A stretch of 27,279 bases of DNA from a virus (taxonomy: Duplodnaviria; Caudoviricetes). The first letter of the stretch is position 1, and each line of letters opens with the position of its first letter. The notes beneath the pieces are model-generated. The model had not been told where the DNA came from. It worked only from the letters and a program-made list of their open reading frames with translations, and searched no databases. This document shows positions 7,158 through 24,839 of the stretch, one piece after another. Position numbers and translations under genes: made by a program. The stretch spans positions 1 through 27,279 of the IMG/VR virus record IMGVR_UViG_3300033067_001707, one strand, 5' to 3'.

Positions 7158-7163
7158 TGGCCT

Positions 7164-7191
7164 GCGCCTCGCGCGCTACGCGCTGCCGGCG
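7164..7191 (-). repeat. Structured repeat copy 1 (intergenic)
   Basis: Minus: CGCC GGCA GCGC-GTA-GCGC GCGA GGCGC. Confidence 0.85.
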
Positions 7192-10152
7192 TCACCTGTC
7201 ACCTTCCAGGGGCATGCCGGGGCGGCGGCCGTAGCGCTGCTGGGCGCGCTCGCTCCAGCTCGGGATGGGGCGGAACACCGGCAGGCGTTCGGCCGGGCGA
7301 TCCGGCACCGTCACGGTGCTGGGCGGCATGTCGCTGCCCTGCGCCACACCGGGCGGCATGGTTTGCGGCAGCAGGAAATCCACCACGCCATCCAGGACGG
7401 TGGTGTAGGGGTCGAAGCTGGGGTGGCTCATGGCGCGCAGGAAGCGCTGGCGGTCGATGATGCGCGGCGGCGGCTGGGCGCCGGGCTGGTCGGCCGCGGC
7501 CTGTGGGGCGCCGCCGGCCAGCGCCTCGCCGGCGCGCGGCAGGTGTTCGAACAGCACTTCGATGGGCCGGCCATCGGCGCGCATGATGTTGACGATGGCG
7601 CCGCCGGCGCTGCGGCCTACCAGCACCGCGCCGCTGCCATCGGCGTTGTTGATCCAGAAACCGCGGCGGGCGGCGCTGGCGGTGGCATCGCGCAACTCGG
7701 CCTCCTGGGCGGAGGGGCGCAAGGGATCGTGCAGCGGCACGATATCGCCGGGCTGGATCGCGCTGCGCACCTGGGCCAGCGCGGTTTCGATGCGGCCGGC
7801 CTGGCCCTTGGGCACCAGCATGGTCGGCGTGTCGAAAATCCAGCCGCTGCCGTCATCACCGGCCGGTTCCCACTTGTGGCCGATCACGTCGTTGTAGGCG
7901 TTCTTGGCCGCCTGGCTGGCGGTTTCGCCGCGGATCACGCGCATGCGGGCGATCGTCTCCACCGATCGGCGCACGCTGTCGAACATGGCCAGGCCGCCGG
8001 GATGGTGGCTGGTGACGGTGCGCAGGTCGGCCAGCTGGCTATCGAGCTCGCCGCGCAGGTTCTTGTTCTCGCCCTCCGGCATCGCCTTCAACACGGCATC
8101 GGGGCCGCCGCGCTGCGCTTCGAACACCAGCGCCTGCTGCAGCAGCGCGCGGCCCTGCGCCTGCTCCGGGCGGTCCATGCCGGCGAAGGCGATCCATTCC
8201 CAGCCGATCTTCTCGTGCTTCACCAGCTCGCCCAGCGCGGTGTTGAACAGGGCGGCGCCGGTGGCACGGCGGGCCGGGTCGGGATCGTCGGCGCCGAAGG
8301 TGCGCGCCATGCCGGCCAGGGTGGCGCCCATGTCGGCCTTGTCCGGCCCGGTGGTGCGCAGCAGCTGCGCCATCTGGCCGGCCTGGTCGTTGGTCAGCAG
8401 GCGGCGGCCGGCGCTGCTCTGCCCCATGCGCGCCTGCACGGCGATGCCGGCCGCGATCAGCTGCTGCGGCGTGCCGCCGGCCTTGGCCAGGGCCTGCACT
8501 TCCGGCGCCGTCATGGCGTAGCCCATGGCGTCGTCCTTCAGGGCCGTCATCACGCGCTGGCGGGCCTGGTCGAAGTGCTGCACGGCCGCGCGGCGCTCGG
8601 CGGCCATGTGCGGGTCGGCCGGGTTGCCGGCGATGCGGGCGCGCAGCGCCTCCTGGTCGGCCGGGCTGGCGTAGGCGGCGGCCTTGATGGCATCGCCGGC
8701 GGTGCGGGCGATGGCCAGCTCGTCTATGTGGCGCTGGCCCACTTCCGGCCCGAACAGCTGGCGGATGCGCGCCTCCGGCGCCGCGGTGCCGGTTTCGCCC
8801 TGTAGGTAGGTGGCCTTGAGGTCGTTGAGCTGCTGGCCCAGCAGCGCGCGCTCTTGCCCCTGCTGCGCTTCCAGGTGGTTGAACCATTGTTCCACCAGCG
8901 CTTCGCGGTGGAGCTGGCGGGTCAGCGGCAGCCCAGCCGCATCCTGGCGCACCGCGTCGAGCACCACCTGGCGGCCGTTGCCGCCGGCCAGGAGGGTGGC
9001 ATAGCCGGCGCGGCGGCGTTCTTCGGTGGCGGTATCGCGCGGGCGCAGGTAGCGCGTGCTGGCCACGCGTGCCGCTTCTTCCGGCGTGCGGGTGGCGGAC
9101 AGCGCATCGCCGGCGGCCTTCTCGCTGCCGCGCAGCTCCGCCACCACGAAATCCAGCTGCTGGGCCAGGGTGGGGTTGTCGCCATATTGCGCGCGCAGCG
9201 CGGCCAGGCGGCTGTCGTTCCACTGCATCAGGTGGAAGCTCCGGCCGCCATCGCCCGGGCGCACGTTGGGATCGGCGCCGCTTTCCTGCACCGCGTTGGC
9301 GGCCAGGCCCTGCGCCACGTGCTGGGGCAGGCCGCGCTCCATCAGCCCCTGCACCACGGCTTGCGCGCGCGTGCGGGTATCGTCCGGCAGGGACAGGCGC
9401 AGCGTTACCGCGTCCTCGTCCTGCCGGCGCTCCACGGGGCTGCGCAGGGTGGTCGTGAGGCTGGCGACGGTGCCGGCGTCCATCTCGCCCTTGAACCGGT
9501 CCAGCATGGCCTGGGCCCCCACGGGATCGCTGGCGGCCTTGATGGTGATGGCCTGGGCGATGGCGCGGGTGAAGATCACGGGCGCGTCGTGCTGCTGGAA
9601 GATGCCAGCGCGCACGTTGCCGGCGATGCCCTGCTTCAGGGCTTCCAGGTGCTGCAGCAGCTGGGGCTCGTCGCGGGCGGCGGCGATGCCCTGGGCCTGG
9701 GCGCCGAAGGCGTCGGCCGCCTGGCCCTGCAGGTTCTTCACGTGGCGCGCGTGCGCATCCACGATCACCTGGCGGTAGAGCGTGGGCATGTAGCTGTCTA
9801 TGTGGCGCGCGACATAGCCGGCCACGGGGCCGGGCAGGTCTTTCAGCGCCGCCTGCTTCCATTCGGCCGCGGCCTGTTCGAAGCGCTGCGGCACGGTGGC
9901 GGGGTCTGGATCCTGCGCGAAGCCCAGCTGCAGGTCGGTGGCTGACTTGGAGATTTGCGCCCAGGCGGCGGTGGCTGCGTTCACCGTCTTGGCCTGCTCG
10001 GCCTGAGCCCATAGCGGGATGAAGTGGCCGGCCACCTGGGCCATGCCCTGGGCGAGCGTGTCGGACACCAGGCTGGCGGCGCGCGGGTCCGGCGCTGGCG
10101 CGGTCAGCGGCAGGCCCGGGGCGCCGTAGCTCTCTCTGCTGCTGTAGCTCAT
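7192..10152 (-). CDS. Internal virion protein with phage tail lysozyme (muralytic) domain (986 aa)
   Basis: At about 9040-9350: RGLPQHVAQGLAANAVQESGADP...GDGGRSFHLMQWNDSR...QQLDFVVAEL...RYLRP, a Phage_lysozyme2-type signature with the putative catalytic Glu in QES. Confidence 0.8.
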   Translation of the reverse strand: MSYSSRESYGAPGLPLTAPAPDPRAASLVSDTLAQGMAQVAGHFIPLWAQAEQAKTVNAATAAWAQISKSATDLQLGFAQDPDPATVPQRFEQAAAEWKQAALKDLPGPVAGYVARHIDSYMPTLYRQVIVDAHARHVKNLQGQAADAFGAQAQGIAAARDEPQLLQHLEALKQGIAGNVRAGIFQQHDAPVIFTRAIAQAITIKAASDPVGAQAMLDRFKGEMDAGTVASLTTTLRSPVERRQDEDAVTLRLSLPDDTRTRAQAVVQGLMERGLPQHVAQGLAANAVQESGADPNVRPGDGGRSFHLMQWNDSRLAALRAQYGDNPTLAQQLDFVVAELRGSEKAAGDALSATRTPEEAARVASTRYLRPRDTATEERRRAGYATLLAGGNGRQVVLDAVRQDAAGLPLTRQLHREALVEQWFNHLEAQQGQERALLGQQLNDLKATYLQGETGTAAPEARIRQLFGPEVGQRHIDELAIARTAGDAIKAAAYASPADQEALRARIAGNPADPHMAAERRAAVQHFDQARQRVMTALKDDAMGYAMTAPEVQALAKAGGTPQQLIAAGIAVQARMGQSSAGRRLLTNDQAGQMAQLLRTTGPDKADMGATLAGMARTFGADDPDPARRATGAALFNTALGELVKHEKIGWEWIAFAGMDRPEQAQGRALLQQALVFEAQRGGPDAVLKAMPEGENKNLRGELDSQLADLRTVTSHHPGGLAMFDSVRRSVETIARMRVIRGETASQAAKNAYNDVIGHKWEPAGDDGSGWIFDTPTMLVPKGQAGRIETALAQVRSAIQPGDIVPLHDPLRPSAQEAELRDATASAARRGFWINNADGSGAVLVGRSAGGAIVNIMRADGRPIEVLFEHLPRAGEALAGGAPQAAADQPGAQPPPRIIDRQRFLRAMSHPSFDPYTTVLDGVVDFLLPQTMPPGVAQGSDMPPSTVTVPDRPAERLPVFRPIPSWSERAQQRYGRRPGMPLEGDR

Positions 10153-10700
10153 GCCGGGTAGCTCTGCTGGCCGTAGGGCGCTGGCGCCTGCATGCGAAGC
10201 TGCGCGCTGCCGTACTGCGCGAGGCCGCCCAGCAGGGTGGTGCCGGCGCGGATGAAGCCGGCGGTGCCGGCACTGTCGGCGGCGCTGTCGGCGAAGGCGG
10301 CCTGGGCGTCCAGCGTGCTGGCCTGGCTCAGGGCGGCATTCGCGCCGGCCTTGCCTTTCCAGCGTTGGATCTGCGCATCCAAGGCGCCTTCGGCGGCGAT
10401 ATCGCCCATCAGGTCCAGCGGGCTGCCATAGGTGGGATCGCCGCCGCTGGCCGCGGCCTGGTTGAAGGCGGTGGCCACGCGGCGGCGGGTGTTGCCCTGG
10501 GTGCGCGCGGCCTCGGCCTCCGCCTGGTTCAGCTGCATCGCGGCGTTGATGCGGGCCTGCTCGGCGCGGGTGCGATCGGCCGCGGCCTGCTGCTCGTACG
10601 CCGCGGCCTGCTGCTGGCCGCCCATGATGGAGCTGATGGCGGAAACGCCCGCGCTGGCGGCGGCCAGGTAGGGCGCGGCGAGGATCAGCGTTTCAGCCAT
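10149..10700 (-). CDS. Small internal virion protein, T7 gp14-like (183 aa)
   Basis: Ala/Gln-rich with hydrophobic N- and C-terminal patches, an AASGG..GSPLD motif, and canonical position. Confidence 0.7.
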   Translation of the reverse strand: MAETLILAAPYLAAASAGVSAISSIMGGQQQAAAYEQQAAADRTRAEQARINAAMQLNQAEAEAARTQGNTRRRVATAFNQAAASGGDPTYGSPLDLMGDIAAEGALDAQIQRWKGKAGANAALSQASTLDAQAAFADSAADSAGTAGFIRAGTTLLGGLAQYGSAQLRMQAPAPYGQQSYPA

Positions 10701-11127
10701 GGGTGCCCACCTGTGCCCAGCGGTCATAATCGGCGCCGTCGTGGCCGTAGCCGGGCATGATGCCTTCGGGCCGGAAGCCCAGCAGCGCCAGCCATTTCGC
10801 GCCGGGTTCCCAGCCGGTGAGGGTTTCGGCCTCGATCCGGCGCAGGCCCAGCTCGCGGCGCGCTTCGGCCAGGCCGCGGCGCACGCGCTTGGTGAGCCAC
10901 GGCCAGGCGGCGGCGGGAAAGTCGGCGCCCATCACGCACCAGCAGCCGGCGCGGCCGGGCCAGTGCAGCACCAGGCCGGCGCAGGCCAGCACCTGGCCGT
11001 CGCGCAGCGCGGTCCAGCACGGGCCGGCCAGCGGCAGGCTGGCGGCGGCCTGGACCATGGGTGCTGCGATCGGCACGCGGGTGCGGATGCGATGCAGGTC
11101 CAGGGGCTCAAAATCCCGAACGATCAT
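10693..11127 (-). CDS. GNAT-fold protein at the T7 gp13 position (144 aa)
   Basis: DGQVLACAG...LRRIEAE...[16 protein letters not shown]-like pattern; lies between nozzle and gp14-like gene; ATGA overlap. Confidence 0.7.
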
Positions 11128-12884
11128 TGCGCCTCTACCTCCTGGATCAGGGCCAACAGGGAGAAGGGCAGGGGCTCGTCGTGCACGATATCCAGCTGGC
11201 CGGTGCCCCAGCGGCTGCGCGGGCTCACGGCATAGTCGCCGCTGAACAGCGGCACGGGGGCGCCCAGGGCATCCACCTGGCGGCGGTAGGCCAGGGCTTC
11301 GAAGTCCATGCCCAGGCCCGCCACGCTGCCGCCGCCGCTGTGCAGCAGGCGCAGCGTGGCGCGCGGCGTGCGCTTCTTGCTGCCCTGGCTGGTGGTGCCG
11401 CCGGGCTTGGCCACTTCCGGTTCCAGGGTCAGCACGCGGGCGCGATACGGCAGGCCCACGTGCACGGTGCTGGCGGCCGGGCCGGTGATCGCCACGCTGC
11501 CGCTGGCCACCACCTGGCTTTGCCGCACGCTGCCATCGGCGACGATGGCCACGGTTTCGCCTTCCAGGTGATCCAGGCCGGCCACGGTGTTGATGGCGGT
11601 GGCGCTGTCCAGCGTCAGCCCGGCATCCACCAGGAAGGCGTCGGTGGCGTCCTCCACTTCGCCGTCGAAGGGGTCGCGCAGCCATTCCATATACCGCACC
11701 GTGGCGCCGCCGATGGTGCGCGCCATGGCCAGGTAGAGGTCGCTGCTGGTGCCATCGGGATCGGGCACTGATGCGATGCTTTCCACCGTGGCGCCCGGGA
11801 ATGCCAGCAGGGTCCAGGCGCGCATCTTCTGGTCGGCGTCCAGCGTCAGCGCCGCCACCTTGCCATCGGGGCGCAGGCCGTAGAACGTGCCGCCCGGCAG
11901 GTCGGCATAGGCGGTTTCCAGGAAGCCGCCGCCGGTGATCTGCGCCGCCAGCGCCGTGAGGTCGGGGCTAATGTAGCGGTCCAGCTGGAAGTCGTACTCG
12001 AGCTGGCGCAGTTTCTTGCCGCCGCGCTGGGGGAACAGCACCAAGCCGGACACGCGGGTGGGCGTGGCGCCGGAGTGGCTGCCGCGATCGCCCTGGGGAT
12101 CGGCGCCGATGTTGCCGGGGGCCAGGGCGCCGTTGCGGTTCACGGGGGCAATGAGGAATTCGCCGCTGGCGGTGCCGGCCAGCAGGCCGCGCGGGGCGGG
12201 CACCAGCCAGCGCGCGGAGTTCACCTGGTCGGTGTCGATGCTGTAGGCGATGGCGTTGGTATCGAGCACGCTGCCGTCGGGCTCGGTGGGCGACATGCTT
12301 TCGAAGTCGCCGGTTTCGCTGGCCCATAGGGTCTGCGGCTTGGTGGTGGTGCCGAACAGCCAAAGCCTGCCCTTGTAGAATGTGCCGGCGATCGGCCAGC
12401 CGCGCGCATCGCTGAATTCGCCCATGCGCCAGCGCAGGCTGGCGCTGGTGGCGGCGAAGGGCCCGCGCGGGTGAATGGTCACGTCCACCACGGTGGAGCT
12501 GGTGAAGCCGGTGATGGTCGCCCAGCCCCATACATGCCGGCCGGGCCCGAGGTATTTCAGCACCGCGGTGCCGTCCAGCACGGTGGGGCCCACTTCGTTC
12601 GGCACGTTGAGGTCGTAGTCCGGCGTGGTGCCGGCCATGCTGGCCGCCGCGGTGGCGCCCGCCTTGGTGACGCGGTAGAGGCGCGGCACCTGGTTGTATT
12701 CGGCGATCAGCAGCTGGCCGGCGGTGTAGGCGGTGCTGGCGGCGCGGGTGGTGTTACACTTGTGCAGGATGCCGATCAGCCGGCCCACGTCGTCGGCCGT
12801 GAACAGGGCCGCGCTGGCGGTGACGGTGGCGGCACCGGAGGCATGCGCCACGCTGGGCGTGAGGGTGATGGATGTATCGGCCAT
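11124..12884 (-). CDS. Tail nozzle (tail tubular protein B-like), C-terminal part (586 aa)
   Basis: GWPIAGTFYKGRLW, PQTLWASETGDF, VLFPQRGGKKLR and GLDHLEGETV...HVGLPY are motifs of gp12/P22 gp10-like nozzles; the family N-terminus is missing. Confidence 0.85.
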   Translation of the reverse strand: MADTSITLTPSVAHASGAATVTASAALFTADDVGRLIGILHKCNTTRAASTAYTAGQLLIAEYNQVPRLYRVTKAGATAAASMAGTTPDYDLNVPNEVGPTVLDGTAVLKYLGPGRHVWGWATITGFTSSTVVDVTIHPRGPFAATSASLRWRMGEFSDARGWPIAGTFYKGRLWLFGTTTKPQTLWASETGDFESMSPTEPDGSVLDTNAIAYSIDTDQVNSARWLVPAPRGLLAGTASGEFLIAPVNRNGALAPGNIGADPQGDRGSHSGATPTRVSGLVLFPQRGGKKLRQLEYDFQLDRYISPDLTALAAQITGGGFLETAYADLPGGTFYGLRPDGKVAALTLDADQKMRAWTLLAFPGATVESIASVPDPDGTSSDLYLAMARTIGGATVRYMEWLRDPFDGEVEDATDAFLVDAGLTLDSATAINTVAGLDHLEGETVAIVADGSVRQSQVVASGSVAITGPAASTVHVGLPYRARVLTLEPEVAKPGGTTSQGSKKRTPRATLRLLHSGGGSVAGLGMDFEALAYRRQVDALGAPVPLFSGDYAVSPRSRWGTGQLDIVHDEPLPFSLLALIQEVEAQ

Positions 12885-13510
12885 CAGGGACCGGCCCCGC
12901 CGCCTTCGGCGCCCGCGTAGGGGTCGGGCCCGTCGCCGTAGCCGCTGCCGGTCGGCGCCGGTTCCTCCGTGCCGCTTTCGGTGCCGGAGCTGCTGCTGCT
13001 GGGCGCGGCGGCTCCCACGTCGCCGGTGTTCTCGGCATCGAACGGCCCGTTTTCGAAGGCAACGGGGGTGAGCGCGAACACGCCGGCGGCGCTGCGGGTG
13101 ATCTTCCGCGTTTGGTAGCTGCCGTGGAACACATAGGCCACATCAGCCGATTGGGTGAATTTCAGGTCGCGCAGGTCGGCCAGCACGTAGGGGGTGGTGA
13201 CTTCCTGCGGCACGCCGGCGGCCAGCACCTGGGCATGGTTGCGCCACACGCGGAAATAGAGGTCGCCGAATTCCAGCACGTAGGCCACCACGTTGCTGAC
13301 GATGAATGGCACCAGGCGCGCGCGATCGGCCTTGATGCCGCCGGCGTAGTAGGTGCCGGAGCGCTTCGTCACGCCGCCTTCGGGCAGCACCAGCACGTTG
13401 GTCAGTTCCTCCGCGCCGGCCTGGTATTGCTGCAGGTCCACACGGCCGCGCAGGCGGCGGGAGAGGATGCCGGCGGCGAAGCTCGTCTGGATGGTGGTTG
13501 AAGCTGCCAT
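12884..13510 (-). CDS. Tail nozzle, N-terminal part, encoded as a separate ORF (208 aa)
   Basis: QTSFAAGILS..L.GRVDL..Y..G...N....PEGG..KRSGT and FTQSADV are the usual nozzle N-terminal motifs; the ORF ends in a Ser/Gly/Glu-rich tail and TGATG. Confidence 0.8.
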   Translation of the reverse strand: MAASTTIQTSFAAGILSRRLRGRVDLQQYQAGAEELTNVLVLPEGGVTKRSGTYYAGGIKADRARLVPFIVSNVVAYVLEFGDLYFRVWRNHAQVLAAGVPQEVTTPYVLADLRDLKFTQSADVAYVFHGSYQTRKITRSAAGVFALTPVAFENGPFDAENTGDVGAAAPSSSSSGTESGTEEPAPTGSGYGDGPDPYAGAEGGGAGP

Positions 13511-13515
13511 CAGTA

Positions 13516-13540
13516 GCGCCTCGCGCTTCGCTGCCGGCGC
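13516..13540 (-). repeat. Structured repeat copy 2 (intergenic)
   Basis: Minus: GCGCC GGCA GC-GAA-GC GCGA GGCGC. Confidence 0.85.
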
Positions 13541-13544
13541 GCCA

Positions 13545-14120
13545 TCAGGCCCTCGCGTTGATGAAGGCGTCGGCCGGGGCGTATTGCGGCTTGGGCGTGC
13601 CTTCGGCGGCGTCCACCTGGCGGGCCAGGCGGCGGGCGGTTTCCAGCTCGTTGGCGATGCGGGCCGCCTGTTCCTTGCTGGCGCTGAGCGGGATGCACAG
13701 GCGTTCGGCCAGCATCGCGGCCACCAGGCGGATGAACAGCGGGGCCCAGGCGCCGGGCTCCTGGTGGCGCCGGATGTATTGGATGTTCAGCGGCGCATCC
13801 ATGTTGCACAGGAGCAGGTCGCCTTCGCGCTCCCACGGTTCGTGGGGATCGTCGCTCTCGATCGCCAGCACGCGCAGGCAATCCGCCGGCACCTGGAATT
13901 GCGCGGTCCATTCGAAGGCGGGCGCGGTGGGGCTGGCGGCCAGGCTGGCGCGGCGCTTGGCGAAATTCCAGGGATGCAGCGCCAGCGCTTCGTCGCGCAC
14001 CTGCGGCATGAATTCGCCGCACAAGCTGGCTTCCTTGCTGGTGTCCGTGTCCAGGCTGACGATCCGTTCGTCACCCACCATGGCCAGCGCCAGATTGGCG
14101 ATTTCTGTCAGGCTGAGCAC
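13545..14120 (-). CDS. Tail adaptor (tail tubular protein A-like, 191 aa)
   Basis: EIANLALAMVG...HPWNFA...PADCLRV motifs; GGAGG RBS before a GTG start. Confidence 0.85.
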   Translation of the reverse strand: MLSLTEIANLALAMVGDERIVSLDTDTSKEASLCGEFMPQVRDEALALHPWNFAKRRASLAASPTAPAFEWTAQFQVPADCLRVLAIESDDPHEPWEREGDLLLCNMDAPLNIQYIRRHQEPGAWAPLFIRLVAAMLAERLCIPLSASKEQAARIANELETARRLARQVDAAEGTPKPQYAPADAFINARA

Positions 14121-14139
14121 TGTGTCTGCCTCCGGCGGC

Positions 14140-14168
14140 TGCCTCGCGGGGCTGCGCCCCTGCCGGCA
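14140..14168 (-). repeat. Structured repeat copy 3 (intergenic)
   Basis: Minus: TGCC GGCA GGGGC-GCA-GCCCC GCGA GGCA. Confidence 0.85.
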
Positions 14169-14244
14169 TCAGATGGGGTAGGCGCCGCCCGCGGGTCCCC
14201 GCTAGGTCGCGGGCGGCCGACGCAGGGGAAGGAGGAACTTTCCC

Positions 14245-14742: not shown

Positions 14743-14785
14743 TTGGGCCTCCTGGAAATGCCGGTGCGAAGCGGCGCAGCGGCGG

Positions 14786-14819: not shown

Positions 14820-14834
14820 GGGGTCAGGCGCCGA

Positions 14835-15746: not shown

Positions 15747-16030
15747 GCTGGGGAACCCCCGATCATGCGTTGAGCACAATCGGCTAAGCTCCCCGGCAAT
15801 TTCGTGCTGGCTGGTGGGGGCGGTCAGACGGACGCTTGCGCGCTCCCCGCCGATTTCGGCCCGTCAACGCCGCAGGTCAGCCGGACCCGCGCCTTGCCCC
15901 CTTTTCAGCGGGGCCTTCTCTGGCCGGGCCGGCCGGACGCCCCACGGTTCAAGGTGGCGCGCTCCCCGGCTCCCGGCTGGTGAGTGCAATCGTTGCCACA
16001 CTAGCCGGTCTGCACGCAAGGGGATTGTTT

Positions 16031-16058
16031 GCGCCTCGCGCCCTACGGGCTGCCGGCG
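16031..16058 (-). repeat. Structured repeat copy 4 (intergenic)
   Basis: Minus: CGCC GGCA GCCC-GTA-GGGC GCGA GGCGC. Confidence 0.85.
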
Positions 16059-16059
16059 A

Positions 16060-17013
16060 CTATGCCGCCTTGTTCGGGTGCGCCCAGGCGTGCAGCTGGG
16101 TCCAGCGCTCCATGTGCTTGGCGCGGTTGGGGTGCCGGGGGTTCATGAATTCCTTGGTGAACTCGGCATCGCCCTGCAGGCGCTGGATTTCCGCCTGCGC
16201 CTCCGCCGGGGTCAGCACGCGGTTGCCGGGGGTGCCGCCGGTGCCGCTGCCGCCGCGCAGGTCGCCGGGCTCGGCCAGGCGCTTGCCGACTTCGGCGAAG
16301 GCCTTCACCAGCTTGGGGTGCGCGCCCATCATGGAACCGTCTGGCATGCGGGTGTTGGCCAACAGCTCGGCCAGCTCCCTGCCGCCGATTTCGATCACGG
16401 CGCGGTTGGCGGCGTGCAAGGTGTCGTCGTAGGCATCGCCCCATTCGGCCTTCAGGTCGCGCGCCACGGCAGCGGCAACTTCCACCGCGCGGGCGTCCTG
16501 CTGCTCGCGCGCCTGCGTCACCTGGGTGCCATAGAGCTCCATGACGCCGGCGGCCTGCTTCGCGGACAAGCCCAGCTTGTGGAAGGCCTCGCGGGCGGCC
16601 GGTTCCACGCCTTCCAGCATGCCTTCGGGCAGGCCGCTGAACTGGTAGCCGTCCGGCTTTTCCGGGCGGCCCAGCTGGGCGTAGATATCGCCCCATTCCG
16701 GCGCGGCCTCGTCGGCCGGCAGGCGCAGCACCTTGCCCTTGTCCAGGCCCACCATGCGCGCGGCGTTGTCGTAGCTCTTGGCCAAGACCTCGATGGTGGG
16801 AATGTCCTTGAACGCCGGGTTGGCGCGGTAGGCCTCGGGCAGCCAGTCGCGCGGGTCGGCGCCACCAGGCGGCGCTGCGGCGCCGCCGGCATTGTCTGCG
16901 TCTCGCGCGCCCGCGGCGCTGCCGGCGTCGGTAGGCGGGGCGCCCGCGTTCAGCAGGCTGGTGGGGGCGGCCGGCGGCGCAGCTCCGCCGGCGTTGGGGT
17001 CAGCACCGTTCAT
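16060..17013 (-). CDS. Capsid scaffolding protein (317 aa)
   Basis: Low-complexity N-terminus; LAKSY, LGRPEKPDGY and LKAEWG..YD motifs; C-terminal HPNRAKHMER; upstream of the capsid gene. Confidence 0.8.
   Translation of the reverse strand: MNGADPNAGGAAPPAAPTSLLNAGAPPTDAGSAAGARDADNAGGAAAPPGGADPRDWLPEAYRANPAFKDIPTIEVLAKSYDNAARMVGLDKGKVLRLPADEAAPEWGDIYAQLGRPEKPDGYQFSGLPEGMLEGVEPAAREAFHKLGLSAKQAAGVMELYGTQVTQAREQQDARAVEVAAAVARDLKAEWGDAYDDTLHAANRAVIEIGGRELAELLANTRMPDGSMMGAHPKLVKAFAEVGKRLAEPGDLRGGSGTGGTPGNRVLTPAEAQAEIQRLQGDAEFTKEFMNPRHPNRAKHMERWTQLHAWAHPNKAA
16898..16927 (-). repeat. Structured repeat copy 5 (inside scaffold gene)
   Basis: Minus: CGCC GGCA GCGCC-GCG-GGCGC GCGA GACGC; one outer-stem mismatch on this strand. 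Confidence 0.75.
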
Positions 17014-17348
17014 GCCATAGCTCCTTGCAGCGCCTTCCGTGCCACCGCTTCGCCGGCTGTGGTCAGCCACCACCAGGAGCTTTCCGGGGTGTTTCCGCTG
17101 CCGCGTTCGTCACGGCTGCCGGCGCCATTGACCCATCCGTTGTAGTAGAACTCTTGCATCTTGTTGGCGCTCGTTTTCAGGGCGGCGCGGTTCAGCATGT
17201 TGCAGCCGCCGCACGGCTGCACCGCATCAAGCAACGCCTGCAGGATCTGCCTTTCGCGTTGGGTGTAGCGTTCGTAGCCCTCGTTTGGGACATGCGACAT
17301 GCCCCAATTTCGCGCCTTTCTTGGAACGAAATTGTCAGTTTCCGGCAT
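17010..17348 (-). CDS. Hypothetical protein, lower GC, possible winged-helix (112 aa)
   Basis: Strong GGAGG RBS; stop overlaps the scaffold ATG; C-terminal WWLTTAGEAVA resembles a wHTH wing/helix. Confidence 0.55.
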   Translation of the reverse strand: MPETDNFVPRKARNWGMSHVPNEGYERYTQRERQILQALLDAVQPCGGCNMLNRAALKTSANKMQEFYYNGWVNGAGSRDERGSGNTPESSWWWLTTAGEAVARKALQGAMA

Positions 17349-17351
17349 CGT

Positions 17352-17567
17352 CTAATCCTCCTTGGCAGTCTCGGGGGTCTGTGTCTGCGCCTCGCGCGCC
17401 TCCGGCGCTGCTGGCGAAGGCGCATCGGCTGGCTTGGGCGCCGCCTTGCGCTTGGGGCGGGCGGCCTCGGCGGCGTCCAGCACGCGCTGGGCCAGCTGCT
17501 CATTGCTGATGGCGCGGTCGAAACGGTCGTACGCCAGCACGGTGGCGACGTTCTGCACGATGGACAT
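17352..17567 (-). CDS. Hypothetical protein (71 aa)
   Basis: AAGGAG RBS; fits the gap exactly; low-complexity C-terminus. Confidence 0.65.
   Translation of the reverse strand: MSIVQNVATVLAYDRFDRAISNEQLAQRVLDAAEAARPKRKAAPKPADAPSPAAPEAREAQTQTPETAKED
17387..17416 (-). repeat. Structured repeat copy 6 (inside the 71-aa ORF)
   Basis: Minus: CGCC AGCA GCGCC-GGA-GGCGC GCGA GGCGC. Confidence 0.8.
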
Positions 17568-17569
17568 GG

Positions 17570-17905
17570 CTACTCCTTGGGGTCGGACGGAAGCAGGCTT
17601 TCGGTGTCGCCAGACAGGATCATGGCGTTCACCTGGCCGGGGTCGGCGTTCAGCATTTCCACGATTTCCAGCGCGAGCTGGCGCCGGCCCTCGTCGTAGT
17701 AGGTTTGCAACGGGTCGGTGGTGCTGAGGCGCTGCATGACCTTGCCGCGGCGCAGCAGGTCGGCCAGCACTTCCTGGCCGTCGCGGGTGGCGAAGGTGCG
17801 GCGATAGGCCAGGGCCAGCGCCTGGCGCTCACGCCGCAGGCGGGCTTCCTCGGCCTCTAGCGGCTCGGGCTGGCGATCGCGGCGGCGGAACCAGAGGCGG
17901 GCCAT
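17570..17905 (-). CDS. Bbp19-like conserved small phage protein (111 aa)
   Basis: YRRTF.T.DGQEVLADL...DP..TYYDEGRR....I...LN is typical of the small gene found between portal and scaffold; TAATG overlap. Confidence 0.7.
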   Translation of the reverse strand: MARLWFRRRDRQPEPLEAEEARLRRERQALALAYRRTFATRDGQEVLADLLRRGKVMQRLSTTDPLQTYYDEGRRQLALEIVEMLNADPGQVNAMILSGDTESLLPSDPKE

Positions 17906-18246
17906 TATCGGCGTGCCGTTCTGCTGCGGAGCCACCAGCGGTGCACTGTCTTCGCCGGGGTAGCGCGGCCTTTGATCGCGATGACACAGGCCAGCGCTCC
18001 GGTGCAGTGGTCAAGCGCACCGCGCAGCCCGTTGCACCAGGCGCACATGGGTCGAAGGTTATGCGGCTCGGTGGCGCCGCCGCGCTCGCGCGGCAGGATA
18101 TGATCCACGGTGAGTAAGGTGGAAGCACGCTCGGGCGGGGGTGGCGTATGGCTCCACATTTCCACGTCGCAACTTGGGCAGCGCATCGGCAGGCCATCCG
18201 CCGCCCTCAGGAAGTGGCGGCGGGCCTTGGTCTGGGTTGTCACCAT
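17905..18246 (-). CDS. HNH endonuclease (113 aa)
   Basis: CPSC...TVDHILPRERGG...NLRPMCAWCN, a Zn-binding HNH signature. Confidence 0.85.
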   Translation of the reverse strand: MVTTQTKARRHFLRAADGLPMRCPSCDVEMWSHTPPPPERASTLLTVDHILPRERGGATEPHNLRPMCAWCNGLRGALDHCTGALACVIAIKGRATPAKTVHRWWLRSRTARR

Positions 18247-20159
18247 CAGTCCACCAGCCCCCCGAACCTGTCGCTGCCATCCAGCACGTGATCCAGCGGC
18301 ACCAGCACGCAGCGGCTGAGCACGCCGCCGAACCGCATTTCCTTGCTGCGCAGCGCATCCGGCGCGGTTTCCAGCGCCGCCTTCCAGCCGCCGCTGGTGC
18401 CGCTGGCCGCCGCGTAGTGGCTGCCGCGGAACACGCTGCTGTTCAGCGCCTGGTGGCCGTTGGCCACGGCGAGCCAGCCGATCGCGCGCCCGCCGTTGTT
18501 GGTGGCGGGCGGGTAGGTGGCGGGGTCGGTCTTGTGGCGGCGCAGCGGCAGCACCGTCTGCTGCTTCTGGCCTTCCTCGGGCTCGGGATACTGCAGCACC
18601 ACGCGCAGGCCATACTGCGCCAGGATGCGGTTGGCGGCCATGCGCTCGTCGGCCAGAACTTCCTTCACCGCGCCGGTTTCGGGATCCGTCCAGATGGGCG
18701 CGAAGGCGGCGGTGGCGATCAGGTGGCCGATGTTCTCCTGCCCGCCGCGGCGGCCCTGCACGTTGGTGCTGGTGATCCGTTCAAGGCAGCGCTGCCATTC
18801 CATCAGTTCTTCGGCGCGGTCGCTGGCGGTGCCCTCGGCCAGCTTCATGGCGAGGTCCTGCAGCTCGTCGGCGGTGGCGGGCTCGTCGTGCAGCGCGATA
18901 TCGGCGGCGGCCAGCAAAATGCCGAACTGCTCGGGGGCGCGGTCGCGCAGGCCAGCTTCCTTCAGCGCGTGCTGCCAGCGCGGCAGCTCGTCGTTGAAGC
19001 GGTGCCAGCCGTCCATCATGCGGCGGAACAGGCGGCGGCCCAGCAGGGCCAACTCGCTGGGCTTCAACACCAGCGGCGGGGTGGCGGGATCCAGCGGCTT
19101 CAGGTTCAGCAGCATCAGGCGGCTGAGATCCTGCGCCTTCAGCGCCGGGCGCAGGATGGAGTTCATCAGCCCCATGAAGCGCACGGTGAAGGTGGCGCTG
19201 CCGTGGTCGGCGGTGCCGCGCAGCATCATGCTGCCGGTGCTGGCGGCGCGCAGCAGCTGCACCAGGGATTTCACGCGCTCGGGCGTTTCCTCCGCCTCCG
19301 CGTCATCGAACAGCACCGGCAGGCAATTGTGCTGCAGCACCGCGCGCACGCCGGCGGCGGTGGCATCGCCGGTGCGCACGCAGCCGGCGGGTTCGTGCAG
19401 CAGCATGCCCATGGCGCGGAACAGGGAGGATTTGCCGGCGGCGCGCGGGCCCGTCACCCAGCCGTGCGGGCGCCAATCGAGCGCGCCGGCGTAGAAGCTG
19501 GCGACGATCCAGCCCAGCATCAGCCGCTTGTCCAGCTCCGGCCGTTCCCAATTCCAGCGGCCCAGCAGGTCGAACAGCTCGCCGGCCGGGCCGCCGGCGC
19601 CGCCGCCCTGGTATTGCTCGGCCGGGCGCGGGCGCGGGGCGGCGGTGGGATACACGAAATCGCCGATGCGGCCGGGCTTCATGGCGGTGTGGCCCACCAG
19701 GATCACGTCGCCGAAATGCTGCACCAGGTCATCATCGGCGCCGCGATGGGTGCCGGTGCCGCGCACGCGGCCCAGGGGGTTGAACACGCCTTCCGCGGCG
19801 CAGGCGTTCATCAGGTCGCGCGCCACGGCATCGGGCTTGAAGTCCACCACGATTTCGGCATCGCCGCGGGCCTTGATGGTCTTGGCCCATTCCGGCTTTT
19901 TCTCCGCGGCCTTCAGCAGCCACTCGCCCCGCGGGGCGAACAGGCCATGCAGGGTGAGCTTGGAGAGCTTCGCCTGCGGCACGGCGCGCACCTGGCCTAC
20001 CACGTCCAGGAAGAACAGCGTGCCATCGTTGGTGCCCAGGGCCGTCACGGGGCAATCGTCGGGCACGAAATCCTCGCCACCGCGGCGCGGGCGGCGCGGC
20101 TCGGCCTCCTGCAGGCGGGTGCGCAGGGGCGAGACGTTGGAGGCTGGGGTTTCGCTCAT
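18246..20159 (-). CDS. P-loop NTPase, putative replicative helicase (637 aa)
   Basis: Walker A GPRAAGKS, Walker B PVLFDDAE and downstream LRAASTG...RG; coupled to the primase by an ATGA overlap. Confidence 0.78.
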   Translation of the reverse strand: MSETPASNVSPLRTRLQEAEPRRPRRGGEDFVPDDCPVTALGTNDGTLFFLDVVGQVRAVPQAKLSKLTLHGLFAPRGEWLLKAAEKKPEWAKTIKARGDAEIVVDFKPDAVARDLMNACAAEGVFNPLGRVRGTGTHRGADDDLVQHFGDVILVGHTAMKPGRIGDFVYPTAAPRPRPAEQYQGGGAGGPAGELFDLLGRWNWERPELDKRLMLGWIVASFYAGALDWRPHGWVTGPRAAGKSSLFRAMGMLLHEPAGCVRTGDATAAGVRAVLQHNCLPVLFDDAEAEETPERVKSLVQLLRAASTGSMMLRGTADHGSATFTVRFMGLMNSILRPALKAQDLSRLMLLNLKPLDPATPPLVLKPSELALLGRRLFRRMMDGWHRFNDELPRWQHALKEAGLRDRAPEQFGILLAAADIALHDEPATADELQDLAMKLAEGTASDRAEELMEWQRCLERITSTNVQGRRGGQENIGHLIATAAFAPIWTDPETGAVKEVLADERMAANRILAQYGLRVVLQYPEPEEGQKQQTVLPLRRHKTDPATYPPATNNGGRAIGWLAVANGHQALNSSVFRGSHYAAASGTSGGWKAALETAPDALRSKEMRFGGVLSRCVLVPLDHVLDGSDRFGGLVD

Positions 20160-21277
20160 CCGGCGTTCCTCGCGTGCTGGGTCGCTTGGGCGGATGCGCC
20201 GGCAGCGGAGCGCGAGGCGCCACTGAGGGTCGCCATGCGCCAGTCGTTGAAGTCCTTGAAACCCTCGGGCGGGCGGGCCTCGCGCACGTCGCGGCCTTCG
20301 CGCGTGTAGCGTTCCACGGCCGCTTCCACGGCGTGCGCGCTGGCGGGGTTCTCGCCGTCGCGGTCCAGGCACAGCACCACGGTGCCGATGCTGGCCGGCA
20401 GGTCCAGGTTGCCCAGGTTGCCCACGTTGATGGCCGCCAGCACGCGCCAGCCCGGCATTTCGGTGGCGATGGTCAACCCGTCCTCGATGCCTTCGCAGAT
20501 GGCCACCACATCGCCTTCGGGTGCCTTGGCCAGCGGCAGGCCGGACGCGCCGCGCGCCAGCGGGATGTAGCCGCCCTGCTGCCGGCCCAGCACCTTCTTG
20601 GCCTTCGTGATGGGCGCCTTGCGCCACACGCCGGATGCATCCCGCTCAATCCAGGTGCGGTGCACGCCGATCATGTCGGCGCCGCGCATGATGCACGCCA
20701 CCATGGCGGGGGCGACACGGTTGCGCTCGGGGCACAGGCATTCGGGGTCGTAGCGCAGCGCGCTGGGCAGGTGGGCGAGGTCGGCACGGCGGATGCCGCG
20801 GCCGGCCAGGTAGTGCTCCACCGGCGAGGTCGGCCAGGGCAGGGCGTTCAGGAAGATCTTGTGCGCCAGCTTGGAGCGCTGCGCCTGCACGTGCTGGGGG
20901 TCCACGCGCGGGCGCGGCGGGGGCGGCGCCACTTCGCGCACGCGCTCGTCGGACAGGCCCAGCCAGGTGCGGGCCCAGCGCAGCGCTTCCGGCACGTCGC
21001 CGCCGGTGCGGGTGGCGGCGATCAGGTCCAGCGCATCGCCCTTGTCGCGGCCCAGCACGCCGCCGCCGGCCGCGCCCTGGAAGTTCATCCACACGCCTTG
21101 CTTGCCGCCGCTGAGGCAGACCGACACGCCATGGCCGGGCGAGCCCTGCAGGTCGCCGGCCACCCATTCGCGGCCTTCCATCTTGCCGCCCGGCAGCAGG
21201 TCACGCGCCAGCTGGTCGATGCGCGCGGTGAGCATGCCCTTGATCTGGTCGAGCGTGTAGAGGTGCTGGCGGGTCAT
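20156..21277 (-). CDS. Toprim-domain primase, phage/plasmid type (373 aa)
   Basis: GVW.NF...GDALDLI N-domain; HYLAGRGI; GVHRTWI; Toprim motifs ICEGIEDGL and LCLDRD; KDFND. Confidence 0.85.
   Translation of the reverse strand: MTRQHLYTLDQIKGMLTARIDQLARDLLPGGKMEGREWVAGDLQGSPGHGVSVCLSGGKQGVWMNFQGAAGGGVLGRDKGDALDLIAATRTGGDVPEALRWARTWLGLSDERVREVAPPPPRPRVDPQHVQAQRSKLAHKIFLNALPWPTSPVEHYLAGRGIRRADLAHLPSALRYDPECLCPERNRVAPAMVACIMRGADMIGVHRTWIERDASGVWRKAPITKAKKVLGRQQGGYIPLARGASGLPLAKAPEGDVVAICEGIEDGLTIATEMPGWRVLAAINVGNLGNLDLPASIGTVVLCLDRDGENPASAHAVEAAVERYTREGRDVREARPPEGFKDFNDWRMATLSGASRSAAGASAQATQHARNAG
20196..20220 (+). repeat. Structured repeat copy 7 (primase 3' end, opposite orientation)
   Basis: Plus: GCGCC GGCA GC-GGA-GC GCGA GGCGC. 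Confidence 0.85.
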
Positions 21278-21690
21278 AGGGACAAAAGGTTCCGCTGCGC
21301 CGGCTCGCGCTTCGGCCTTGGTGGTTGCGGCGCGAAATCTGGCGTGAAGAAACCGAGCTGGCCGCGGCACGGCCGGAACGGCAGCGGGCGAGCGTTGCGG
21401 ATGACAAAGCCGAACGGCCCGAAGAACCAAGGCGATGGGCTGCTGGTGACGCAATCGACAATTTCCGCAATGCCGATGATGCCGCCTGTGTCGAAAGTAT
21501 CCGGCTGCTGAATGTCGGGCCAATCCCAAAGCAGCGAGGGGCCTTCGTCCAGATAATCAGGATCGAAGCGTTTTCCTGCATGGATCAGCACTTCACCACG
21601 GTAGAACGTGGACCATCCCCTGTTCTCGATATCCTTGTGCCCGGCTGCAATCAGCCAAGCCCATGGTTGCATGATGCTTAGAGCTTTCAC
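21274..21690 (-). CDS. ASCH-domain protein (138 aa)
   Basis: KALSIMQPWAWLI..GHKDIENR.W...RG..LIHA, GGIIG..EIVDC and PCRGQLGFF; GTG start overlaps the portal stop. Confidence 0.88.
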   Translation of the reverse strand: MKALSIMQPWAWLIAAGHKDIENRGWSTFYRGEVLIHAGKRFDPDYLDEGPSLLWDWPDIQQPDTFDTGGIIGIAEIVDCVTSSPSPWFFGPFGFVIRNARPLPFRPCRGQLGFFTPDFAPQPPRPKREPAQRNLLSL

Positions 21691-23285
21691 GCCGGCTGGC
21701 CTCCGCCCTGGATGCCGGCCAGGGTGGCCAGGGCGGCGGCGCCGTCCTTTGCCGCACCGGCGCCGGATTTCAGCAGCTCCGCCTGCGCCAGCTGCTGCTG
21801 CTGCTGCGCCTCGGCGTTGGCCTTCTCCGCCAGTTCCTCCGGCGTGCGCAGCAGGGCCACGGGAAGGCCGGTGCGGTCGGCCAGGAAATCGGCCGTGCGC
21901 GCCGGGTGGATCACGTTGGCCGTGGTGGGGTCGATCTGCATCAGCGGCTGCATGGCGGCGAAGAACCGCATCACGGTTTCCGCGTCGGCCTGGCGCTGGG
22001 CGCGGCTGAGCGGGCCCAGGTATTCCACCCACCAGCCGCCGCCCCGCTGCAGGGCGGCCGGCAGCGGCGGGAAAAAGCCGTTGCGCAGCAGGATCGCGAA
22101 GGTGCGGGCCAGCAGCGGCGCCAGCAGCTCCGCCTCCTGCCGTTCCGTCATCGGGCCCAGCAGGCGCAGCAGCTCGTCGCGGCGCTGCAGCACTTCGGTG
22201 GCCGTCATGTTGGGCTGCTGCGGCAGGCGCAGCCAGGTGACGTAGAAGATGGCGCTGATGCGCTCCTGCACCTGCTCAATCTTCTTCTCGGCGAGGTCCG
22301 GCCGCGCGCCGGTCTGGATCGGGCCGATGCGGTCCACGTGCCGCGTGTCGCCGCGCAGGTAGTTGAACGCCCCGGGGTTGAAGTTGGGCGCGTTCAGAAA
22401 GCCGTCATCCGGCAGCATCAGCGGCGGGTCCACCACCTTGGCCAGGCCGCGCAGGTTGAGGCGCTCGATCTCGTTCAGCATCTTCACGTCGGCCAGCGCG
22501 TTCACGCCGGGGCCGGCGCCGTAGGTTTCGCCGCTGCGCAGGGTCCAGCGGCCCACGGCGAAGGGGAATTCCTGGTAGCGGCCGTGCTCGAGGTACTGCT
22601 GCTGGTGGCACCACATCGTATCGAAGCCGCCTCGCGCTGCGCTGCCGGCGGGTTGCGTGGCATGGGTGATGGTCACGGGCTCGTCGGGGTGGCTGTTGCC
22701 CTTGCGGCGCAGCTGCTCGGGCGTGGTATCGGGCCAGAGGCGCAGCACTTCGCGCAGCGGCAGCTGGTATTCGCGATACAGGGTATCCACCTGGCGGTCG
22801 GCGTTCTCGGCGAAGTAGCATTCCGCCAGCGGGATGGACTGGAAGCGCGCGCCGCGGCGGCCCTTGTCGGCAATGAAGATCACGCCGGCGCCGGGGCCGG
22901 AGAGTTCCAGGAAGGTTTCGTGCAGCGCCACGCCGGCGCCGGTGGCAGCGCTCTTGATGTGCGCATCCATGATATCGGTGGCGGCCTCGAACCAGGCGAC
23001 GGTGGCGCGGTCGCGCGCCAGCTCGGGCGCCGGCTGCAGCTTGAACCAACGCAGCGCCGGCGAGGTCAGCATGCCGTGCAGCCCGCCGGCGAGCTGTTCC
23101 AGCGCCAGCACCGGGTGGGTGTTGAAGATCTTGCCGCCGCGCTTCTGCCCGGGCGTGGGCGTGGTGGTGTAGGCGCGGCTGGGGATCATGTAGTCCGCGA
23201 TTTCCTGCCACACGCTATCGTGGTTGGAGCGCTTGGCCTTCAGCTCCTGCAGGCGCTGATGCGCGGCCTTGGGGTCAATGGCCAT
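21687..23285 (-). CDS. Portal (head-tail connector, T7 gp8-like; 532 aa)
   Basis: WQEIADY, LAGGLHGMLTSP...WF, RW....GETYG.GPG..AL.DVK.L and MTATEVLQR..E....LGP. Confidence 0.92.
   Translation of the reverse strand: MAIDPKAAHQRLQELKAKRSNHDSVWQEIADYMIPSRAYTTTPTPGQKRGGKIFNTHPVLALEQLAGGLHGMLTSPALRWFKLQPAPELARDRATVAWFEAATDIMDAHIKSAATGAGVALHETFLELSGPGAGVIFIADKGRRGARFQSIPLAECYFAENADRQVDTLYREYQLPLREVLRLWPDTTPEQLRRKGNSHPDEPVTITHATQPAGSAARGGFDTMWCHQQQYLEHGRYQEFPFAVGRWTLRSGETYGAGPGVNALADVKMLNEIERLNLRGLAKVVDPPLMLPDDGFLNAPNFNPGAFNYLRGDTRHVDRIGPIQTGARPDLAEKKIEQVQERISAIFYVTWLRLPQQPNMTATEVLQRRDELLRLLGPMTERQEAELLAPLLARTFAILLRNGFFPPLPAALQRGGGWWVEYLGPLSRAQRQADAETVMRFFAAMQPLMQIDPTTANVIHPARTADFLADRTGLPVALLRTPEELAEKANAEAQQQQQLAQAELLKSGAGAAKDGAAALATLAGIQGGGQPA
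22627..22651 (-). repeat. Structured repeat copy 8 (inside portal gene)
   Basis: Minus: CCGCC GGCA GC-GCA-GC GCGA GGCGG. Confidence 0.8.
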
Positions 23286-23949
23286 GGGCGGCCTCCGGCG
23301 CTGCAATGAACATGTCCGCCTGTCGCTGCGCCTGCTCAATGCGCTTGCAGGCCAGGTCGAAGAACCGCGGTTCCACCTCGATGCCGATGAAGCGCCGGCC
23401 GGCGCGCACACAGCCCACGCCGGTGGTGCCACTGCCCATGAAGGGGTCGAGCACCACCTCGCCCGCGTCGGTGGCTCGATCCACCAGCCAGTCGAAATGC
23501 ACCTGCGCGCGCGACATGGGGTGTCCGTTGGCGGGGCGCTGCTGAGGCTGTGCCGCGGGCGCGCGGCCGGGCACCAAATGGCGTCCAGGGCCGGATTTGG
23601 TGGGTGCGCCGAACCAATAGGCCAGCTCGTCGCCTCCGAGCACGCGGCCAAGATAGGCCGGCATGACGTAGGGGAGCAGGATGGAGCGGAAGAATGGGTG
23701 CCAGCGGTAGGCCGCAAGAAAACGAGGATCGCTGTCGCAGCGCATCACGATGACAGCGCGCTGGTGCACCGGGAGGCGCATGCAGGCGGTTTCGAAGAGC
23801 CCATGCGGGTTGTCGCTGCCCGCGACCGAATTCGGCGGACAGTTGGGCCAAACGGGATCGGTAACGATCACGTCGGCTTTCAGCTCCTGCATGACCTCGC
23901 GACAATCGGCGAGGATCAGCGTTGCCGCGCCAAGCTGTTCCATGCGCAT
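23275..23949 (-). CDS. DNA amino-methyltransferase, beta-class-like, with atypical motif IV (224 aa)
   Basis: LILADC...IVTDPVW near the N-terminus; HP; VLDPFMGSGTTG...RRFIGIE SAM-binding motif near the C-terminus. Confidence 0.85.
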   Translation of the reverse strand: MRMEQLGAATLILADCREVMQELKADVIVTDPVWPNCPPNSVAGSDNPHGLFETACMRLPVHQRAVIVMRCDSDPRFLAAYRWHPFFRSILLPYVMPAYLGRVLGGDELAYWFGAPTKSGPGRHLVPGRAPAAQPQQRPANGHPMSRAQVHFDWLVDRATDAGEVVLDPFMGSGTTGVGCVRAGRRFIGIEVEPRFFDLACKRIEQAQRQADMFIAAPEAAHGH

Positions 23950-24128: not shown

Positions 24129-24556
24129 GCTTCTGGCTCGCCGGTGGTGGCCAGCACGCGCAAGGTGCCGTGCTCGTCATCGTCAAGGACTTGCGTTTGC
24201 GCCGGCGCGGGCTGGCGCTTCTTCAGCTGTTCCAGCTCGCGCTGGCGGCGGATGGCGGCGTTCTCCTGGTAGCTCTGGGCCATGCACGCCGCGGCCAGCA
24301 GGGCGCAGAGGTCGCTCTTGCCGGTGCTGCCCACGCGCACGTTGCCCAGCGCATCGCAGTAGGGATCGCGGCCAGGGCTGGCGTCCAGGATGTAGCCCCA
24401 GCCCTGCGGCAGCACGCTGCGGGCGGCGGCGAAGTCCTGCATGTAGCGGGTGCGCGGGTTGGCGTTCAGCTTCTGCGCCACCGCTTCCTGCAGGGTGATG
24501 CTGGGGGCCTCGGCCTGGGCGATGGCCAGGCCCAGCTCATGCCAGGTGATGCTCAT
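24125..24556 (-). CDS. Hypothetical protein (143 aa)
   Basis: MSITWHELG...; ATGA overlaps at both ends; normal codon usage. Confidence 0.65.
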   Translation of the reverse strand: MSITWHELGLAIAQAEAPSITLQEAVAQKLNANPRTRYMQDFAAARSVLPQGWGYILDASPGRDPYCDALGNVRVGSTGKSDLCALLAAACMAQSYQENAAIRRQRELEQLKKRQPAPAQTQVLDDDEHGTLRVLATTGEPEA

Positions 24557-24771
24557 TCGGACACTCCCAACAGGGTGCGGCGCTGGTCGGGCGCGGCGGT
24601 GTAGCTGCCGGGCGGGCCCAGCAGCGTGGCGGAACGGCCCCGCAGGCCGGCGATGCGCGCGCGCTCGCCCGCCATGGTGGCGGCGACGTCGTCGCGCACC
24701 GGGGCCGGCGGCGGGATGATCGGGGCTTGCGGGGGCGGCGCCTTGGGCCCGCCGCCGAACAGGGCGGTCAT
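24553..24771 (-). CDS. Small virion assembly protein, T7 gp7.3-like (72 aa)
   Basis: LFGGGPKAPPP...RGRSATLL...RTLLG is typical of the small gene that normally precedes the portal. Confidence 0.7.
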   Translation of the reverse strand: MTALFGGGPKAPPPQAPIIPPPAPVRDDVAATMAGERARIAGLRGRSATLLGPPGSYTAAPDQRRTLLGVSE

Positions 24772-24783
24772 CAGAGGGCGCCC

Positions 24784-24814
24784 GCGCCGGCAGCGGCAAA
24801 GCCGCGCGAGGCGC
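24784..24814 (+). repeat. Structured repeat copy 9 (opposite orientation)
   Basis: Plus: GCGCC GGCA GCGGC-AAA-GCCGC GCGA GGCGC. Confidence 0.85.
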
Positions 24815-24839
24815 AAGACAGGGATTGCGCACCCATGGC

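Follow-up and report, generated by a model that had tools for sequence, protein, structure and literature searches.

The 27,279-nucleotide stretch of viral DNA deposited as IMG/VR record IMGVR_UViG_3300033067_001707, hereafter called the window and analysed as a contig by itself representing a partial genome, raises the question of why a temperate podovirus should carry nine copies of one small hairpin dispersed between positions 7164 and 24814. The copies share an outer stem, an internal loop made of GGCA and GCGA, an inner stem that varies in length and sequence, and a triloop closed by a C-G pair. A first-pass annotation made from the letters alone had read them as a phage-specific signal, folded as single-stranded DNA (ssDNA) or cruciform and recognised by a phage protein. 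The first part of this proposal did not survive comparison with related genomes: the hairpin copies are insertion polymorphisms and not a fixed phage signal, and the element also occurs in chromosomes of the host type and in phages of unrelated types. We favour, with moderate confidence, the explanation that the hairpins represent a non-autonomous mobile mini-element, folding as ssDNA and moved in trans by a putative hairpin-reading enzyme.

All nine hairpins are present in the window. Their loops and inner stems agree with the first listing, as do the C-G closing pairs and the A(A)RACA flanks of four copies. Seven lie on the minus strand, in sense orientation (7164, 13516, 14140, 16031, 16898, 17387 and 22627), and two on the plus strand, in antisense (20196 and 24784). 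The perfect form GCC-GGCA-stem-NNN-stem-GCGA-GGC is found in seven of them, while the 16898 copy has a single outer-stem mismatch and the 17387 copy has AGCA in place of GGCA. A strict descriptor gave seven matches in the window and none in any of 90 Markov sequences (30 for each of orders 1, 3 and 5), and a descriptor allowing one mismatch gave a mean of 0.07-0.17 and a maximum of 1 in the same controls. A covariance model returned nine window matches at 36-45 bits, the next best scoring 18 bits, so that there is no tenth strong copy; the model was trained on 58 copies that include those of the window, and these matches are therefore by construction. No Rfam family matches the motif, the search giving a single chance match well under threshold, in agreement with the first-pass annotation, which did not recognise it as a described element.

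The claim that the fold is under selection is upheld by the alignment, in which 98.8% of the cells are paired and six of the eight pairs show compensatory changes, with a score for pairing and compensation that exceeds all 500 shuffles and all slid controls. Because the alignment rows were chosen for the motif, this covariation counts as support and not as a probability. Outer-stem variants that the search did not require (CACC/GGTG with ACGC/GCGT, GCGGC/GCCGC, GCTCC/GGAGC and GTCGC/GCGAC) provide covariation that is independent of this choice. Among single variants of the outer stem, those at L604 and L639 look genuine by context, and those at L562, L646, L652, L582 and L629 may be due to chance. 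The invariant parts are C-GGCA ... GCGA-G and the C-G-closed triloop, often followed by a CA(G/A)AC tail. The near-invariance of GGCA/GCGA, noted at the outset, thus stands with the one AGCA exception, but its full unpairing does not: several ViennaRNA folds pair GC with GC within this loop, leaving a G.A mismatch and bulges, and these predictions indicate that the internal loop need not be wholly unpaired.

The evidence that the copies are insertions comes from filled and empty sites. Each of the nine window sites lacks the motif in at least one related podovirus, and the relatives carry copies elsewhere; the window is itself empty at sites that are filled in L128/L136 and in L241. Six of its sites are empty in relatives as clean gaps of 12-65 nt, and the three others (7164, 16898 and 20196) are without the motif but poorly alignable. 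Public sequencing runs also contain the skipped form, over 13498-13543 in three of four (X2, X3 and X4) and over 24761-24827 in two of four (X2 and X13); reads aligned to 15900-17700 showed no clean skip of any element. Duplications of 4-14 nt are seen at several filled/empty pairs. One junction, at 24784, was struck twice in opposite orientations, with an antisense copy in the window and a decayed sense copy in L282, and decayed copies exist as well at 25173-25194 and in L469.

Where an element sits in an overlapping stop-start junction, it either extends a gene in frame or supplies a short relay open reading frame (ORF) that keeps translational coupling. At the junction of the lysozyme-domain and ParB-domain internal virion genes, the minus-strand insertion at 7158..7194 (inner stem GCGC, loop GTA), for which L128/L136 have no motif in a poor alignment, forms a relay ORF of 13 codons at 7154..7195 (minus), whose GTG overlaps the upstream stop and whose TGA overlaps the next ATG. 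Between the genes for tail tubular proteins A and B, the minus-strand copy at 13510..13542 is a 35-nt insert flanked by a CTGATG duplication; the site is empty in L130 and filled in L125/L128/L136. The relay ORF here has 11 codons (13510..13545, minus) with a TGATG overlap at both ends, the 3' end being TAATG in L125. The minus-strand insertion at 14133..14171, upstream of tail tubular protein A, has an inner stem of GGGGC/GCCCC and corresponds to a 46-nt gap in L130 and to an orthologous copy in L125/L128/L136. At the same intergenic spot, L240 (7490-7520) has a decayed antisense look-alike with the same GGGGC/GCCCC stem. Directly after the scaffold stop codon, the minus-strand insertion at 16025..16061 faces a 38-nt gap in L125 and L130. 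Three further minus-strand copies are in frame within genes: the one with the outer mismatch (16892..16930) in the low-complexity N-terminus of the scaffold gene, shared with L125 and without motif in L130, where the alignment is poor; the AGCA variant (17381..17419) within a 71-aa ORF, facing a gap of about 32 nt in L130; and the copy in the portal gene (22621..22653), where L130 is filled (+27 nt) and L240 and L282 are empty. The two plus-strand copies are antisense, one at the 3' end of the Toprim primase gene (20194..20226), absent in L130 and L282 where the region aligns poorly, and the other (24782..24820) inside a 65-nt insert at a gene start that is empty in L130 and L240. The latter insert creates a 21-codon relay ORF (24771..24836, minus), which begins at the ancestral ATG and ends in a newly formed TGATG overlap. 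Finally, 25173..25194 (minus) is the remnant of a tenth copy with a deleted inner arm (16.8 bits), which aligns with an intact copy in L130.

This coupling recurs at other junctions. Among 26 hand-picked junction sites, some of which are orthologues, 19 have a start that overlaps the upstream stop or directly adjoins it. From six of these coupled starts the frame continues into the next gene, from 12 it closes on the next start or within 2 nt of it, and from one it closes before a separate ribosome site; six of the other sites have no coupled start and one is a spurious call. Such outcomes are what purifying selection on inserts of random length would be predicted to leave, and no regulatory role is then needed to account for the relay ORFs.

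The element is not restricted to one phage lineage. Exact-pattern scans gave 138 site clusters, of which 81 in phage and alphaproteobacterial loci were retained by hand and 57 dropped; roughly one in two exact matches in public genomes lies in an unrelated taxon and is a coding look-alike, reading PAAQREA or PAAEREA. Copies were found in three groups of related podoviruses (protein identity 70-90%), in a lambda-head/Mu-tail phage (six copies), an HK97-like phage (four) and Mu-like prophages, and in alphaproteobacterial genomes. One ORF of an unrelated siphovirus holds four copies in frame, two per orientation. Annotated phage and plasmid collections gave chance matches only, and none of the four records inspected has the element. 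A loose pattern occurs in 87 of 301 genomes of the family, with hairpin-forming matches in eight by eye among the matches listed. Of the 15 genomes of one Acetobacteraceae-level genus, seven gave model matches (E below 0.01), with 1 to 11 per genome when 150 candidates in each were scored, and exact-pattern counts agree; the richest chromosome has 11 strong matches per 5.1 Mb among the candidates so scored. Copies number about 330 per Mb in the window, compared with at most about 2 per Mb across these 15 related chromosomes, a density about 150-fold higher than in the richest of them, in a comparison with relatives and not with the phage's own host. An equal density along chromosomes, named in the first-pass annotation as the mark of a generic host repeat, is thus not what we see, and the phage enrichment stands.

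Filled alleles were also found in chromosomes, each set against 8-12 empty orthologues: +33 nt at a junction of the phosphonate (phn) operon with ATGA duplicated, +27 nt in ileS, +27 nt in an M20 peptidase gene and, in antisense, +36 nt in a glycosyltransferase gene and +30 nt with a 9-nt duplication in another gene. Tandem arrays of 3-7 units are present. Some chromosomal sites recur: the phn operon is struck at three different junctions in several genomes, and a loop of the M20 peptidase and the junction before ddl are hit repeatedly (loci L141, L154, L168, L297, L343, L346 and L362).

As to whether the element works as DNA or RNA, GNA loops are found in seven of the nine window copies and, with the loop left free in the search, in 14 of 15 long-stem chromosomal copies. 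Only GNA loops give a stable, exonuclease-resistant DNA mini-hairpin, according to PMC13037366. The occurrence of copies in both orientations and in mid-gene disfavours a role as RNA, and the GNA triloops together with both orientations point to folded ssDNA, in line with the earlier suggestion of a DNA element.

We therefore set out how a mobile mini-element of this kind might work. An insert of 27-38 bases would fold as ssDNA, the folded top strand being the likely substrate, and a hairpin-reading enzyme acting in trans would cut it out and paste it elsewhere. Purely by analogy with known systems, an ssDNA hairpin enzyme of the HUH or Ssn type would be the candidate (PMC8266576, PMC6006769, PMC11893778, PMC3733652); the transposase TnpA-REP, for instance, reads the stems of repetitive extragenic palindromes (REP) with conserved bulges as ssDNA (PMC8266576). 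Such an enzyme could be encoded by the host or by another mobile element, and would resemble a HUH transposase (Y1, or REP-associated tyrosine transposase, RAYT) or an Ssn-type ssDNA nuclease. Exposed single strands may be favoured for insertion, as the seven of nine window copies on the sense strand would suggest. Survivors would then be filtered by translation, with the frame kept inside genes by net inserts of 27, 30, 33 and 36 nt, and the duplication of the overlap at stop-start junctions giving an in-frame extension or a relay mini-ORF. More speculatively, the enrichment in phages might arise because phage DNA is more exposed as single strands and recombines more, or because the element brings a weak benefit. 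A bolder version, which we regard as rather unlikely, is that the hairpins form a new minimal class of ssDNA transposon, defined by its fold (any 4-5 bp stem, a GGCA/GCGA loop, any 2-5 bp stem, a GNA cap and a CARAC tail), moved by a structure-specific enzyme mainly on temperate-phage DNA, adding relay mini-genes to operons through the duplication of stop-start overlaps, and then kept by the phage as an ssDNA signal.

Several observations weigh against the mobile mini-element. No enzyme that would mobilise the element was found: in five carrier genomes, other repeats flank the Y1, GIY-YIG and DUF559 genes. A Y1_Tnp domain is present in three of the seven carriers, the three copy-richest genomes, and in none of the eight non-carriers, and small GIY-YIG frames in five of seven carriers and two of eight non-carriers, both distributions being confounded by kinship in incomplete genomes. 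The chromosomal copy number is very low for REP. A uniform target duplication was not detected among 43 single copies (best 8-mer flank match of 4.77, against 4.59 +/- 0.12 in shuffled flanks), and no duplication is known from IS200/IS605-type HUH enzymes. Nearest-neighbour folding energies separate neither the two strands nor DNA from RNA. Lastly, the window and L125 have three cores in common, in which 75 of 81 bases agree, whereas four neighbouring genes are 80% identical overall and 74% at four-fold sites (binomial P 0.002 and 2e-5), in a comparison that took in only pairs still recognisable; such conservation is suggestive, being unexpected for a purely selfish element.

Within the carrier genus, the RAYT genes are accompanied by GTAG repeats, the small GIY-YIG genes by repeats of the CGTC type and the DUF559 genes by palindromes particular to them, several of these repeats being C-GNA-G-capped (loci L400, L401, L404 and L407-L414); by eye, the repeats flanking the small GIY-YIG genes of carriers share this cap. 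The readers named in the first-pass annotation, a phage primase, HNH or ParB-domain protein, found no backing, as these genes are not common to all carriers. For the HNH protein, the gene is missing between the helicase and Bbp19 genes in two carriers (L125 and L130). When the podoviruses were compared with the remaining carrier phages over partial stretches, the only shared genes were structural and methylase homologues, with no shared small gene.

The conservation of the cores, together with the phage enrichment, would allow for a secondary use by the phage. In a stronger form, the element would have spread by insertion but been retained as a signal on the folded strand, for example for primase or primosome loading on the lagging-strand template or as an ssDNA-protecting mark. 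Its density in the window relative to the chromosomes, the seven of nine copies on one strand, the Toprim primase encoded by the window phage and the mini-hairpins known at the G4 origin, RSF1010-type ssiA and N4 promoters (PMC13037366) would all fit, but no site is retained in all relatives, copies decay, a complete relative has just one intact copy, and copies are found in chromosomal ileS and ddl and in partial phage stretches without this primase, so that we consider such retention unlikely. A different function, that of an mRNA hairpin tuning the translational coupling of structural genes in which the GAGG of the 3' arm would act as a concealed ribosome site, could explain why many copies follow a stop codon and form relay ORFs, why GAGG stands 8-9 nt ahead of the next ATG at 7164 and 13516, and why the L604 variant contains the sole AGGAG before a start; the RNA folds of the copies, at -12 to -22 kcal/mol, would agree with it. 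Yet antisense and mid-gene copies are common, one junction is filled in either orientation, the spacing to the start varies, the triloops are a DNA-type cap and not RNA tetraloops, and the frame filter yields relay ORFs by itself, which makes a role in mRNA improbable.

Insertion could also proceed with no dedicated enzyme, nuclease-resistant hairpin fragments being captured at microhomologies by phage single-strand annealing or repair. The varying length of inserts and duplications, the phage enrichment, the resistance of mini-hairpins to exonuclease (PMC13037366) and a target that already matched the 5' end of the element over 6-9 nt at some sites (the GATase site, L282 and L194) speak for this capture. 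It leaves unexplained the invariant internal loop, the freely covarying stems and the CARAC-like 3' tail, features that together imply a specific reader, and we give it little credence. Chance matches in a sequence of 70% G+C deserve mention, considering how many public exact matches are coding look-alikes, which led to the removal of 57 of the 138 clusters. For the window copies, chance is refuted by the empty Markov controls and by clean presence/absence gaps that equal the element, and its probability is negligible.

Regarding the phage itself, the window genes are nearly all on the minus strand and include those for portal, scaffold, capsid and tail tubular proteins, a Toprim primase, a helicase-like protein, an HNH protein and a methylase, besides two internal virion proteins with a ddrB-ParB domain and a lysozyme domain, respectively. 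The former (4797-7157) is of the internal virion type, and its ddrB-like ParB domain is conserved in related podoviruses. The tail tubular protein B homologue (PHROG 376; 11124-13510) is split into adjacent ORFs of 208 and 586 aa, a split also seen in three related phages. The primase and helicase-like genes (18246-21277) stand between portal and scaffold, an order unusual for this virion type, and variable genes lie among the structural ones and are missing in some relatives: a 112-aa ORF (17010-17348), HNH (17905-18246), ASCH (21274-21690) and a DNA methylase (23275-23949). At the left edge, positions 20-64 are the 45-nt 3' end of a tRNA gene, likely an attachment core, with an exact match in 11 of the 15 carrier-genus genomes and twice in G261. 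This identity fits, without proving, a host in the carrier genus and is consistent with an alphaproteobacterial one. With the window capsid as query, only distant relatives were found, in 2 of 401 family genomes.

The way in which REP-like repeats spread is an open question (PMC8266576, PMC3733652), and single insertion events can be read directly in this small phage group from filled and empty alleles, repeat strikes and stem variants. The element is among the shortest mobile inserts, with stems that vary freely around a fixed loop, and it illustrates how a selfish insert can survive in tightly coupled operons by making relay mini-ORFs. If an enzyme does read the fold, it would constitute a new ssDNA-specific tool, and the phage enrichment would make the element a marker for host assignment.

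Among known systems, prokaryotic and viral miniature inverted-repeat transposable elements are likewise non-autonomous, common to hosts and viruses and denser in viral sequences (PMC11602168), but they measure 50-800 bp with terminal inverted repeats of 10-15 bp, whereas the present element is an insert of 27-38 nt with an outer stem of 4-5 bp, and its duplications, of 4-14 nt at several filled/empty pairs, give no general signal over 43 single copies. The C-GNA-G or related DNA mini-hairpin cap is shared with the N4 virion RNA polymerase promoter, the G4 origin and ssiA (PMC13037366); those signals are fixed sites at origins or promoters, and the element is polymorphic and used in both orientations. 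No RNA polymerase domain was found among the 27 proteins of the window, a partial genome, and, unlike a single-strand initiation (ssi) or primase site, no element site is conserved across relatives and both strands are used. A search of the literature, including that on REP and Ssn repeats, gave no account of the motif, the REP catalogue figures and two Ssn supplementary files lying outside this search.

The closest likenesses are with three repeat families. GTAG REP, associated with TnpA-REP (RAYT), are also imperfect palindromes of 20-40 nt with conserved stem mismatches (PMC8266576, PMC6006769, PMC3733652), dispersed as singles and clusters near gene ends and sometimes in frame within genes, but the window element has no GTAG (GT[AG]G) 5' foot by flank frequencies at 81 sites, does not lie beside the RAYT genes of the carriers, three loci of which are flanked by a different GTAG repeat, occurs at 1-11 instead of many copies per chromosome, is phage-enriched and has short flanking duplications at several sites. 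The CGTC repeats associated with Ssn GIY-YIG ssDNA nucleases are alphaproteobacterial as well (PMC3733652, PMC11893778), and in the GIY-YIG-adjacent repeats of the carriers the same C-GNA-G cap closes a 2-bp GC stem that tops an internal loop. Unlike CGTC repeats, however, the element has no CGTC on its GNA strand (a TGTC-like word is found on the opposite strand in a minority), has an outer stem of 4-5 bp beginning with G-C instead of one of 8-9 bp opening with AT, rarely forms head-to-head dimers and does not flank ssn-like genes, three GIY-YIG loci carrying other repeats. With Rickettsia palindromic elements (RPE), which are in-frame palindromes in unrelated housekeeping genes including tRNA synthetases (PMC10969869, PMC3733652), it shares in-frame insertion in genes as unrelated as ileS, M20 peptidase, portal and scaffold. 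It differs from them, in a comparison that drew on Rfam and reading frames but not on direct alignment to RPE sequences, by a lack of kinship in sequence, by a length of about 30 nt versus about 150 nt for RPE-1, by the use of several frames and both strands, which leaves no conserved peptide, by the relay mini-ORFs made at junctions and by its enrichment in phages. The element thus acts like REP, CGTC and RPE repeats but has neither their sequence tags nor their gene association.

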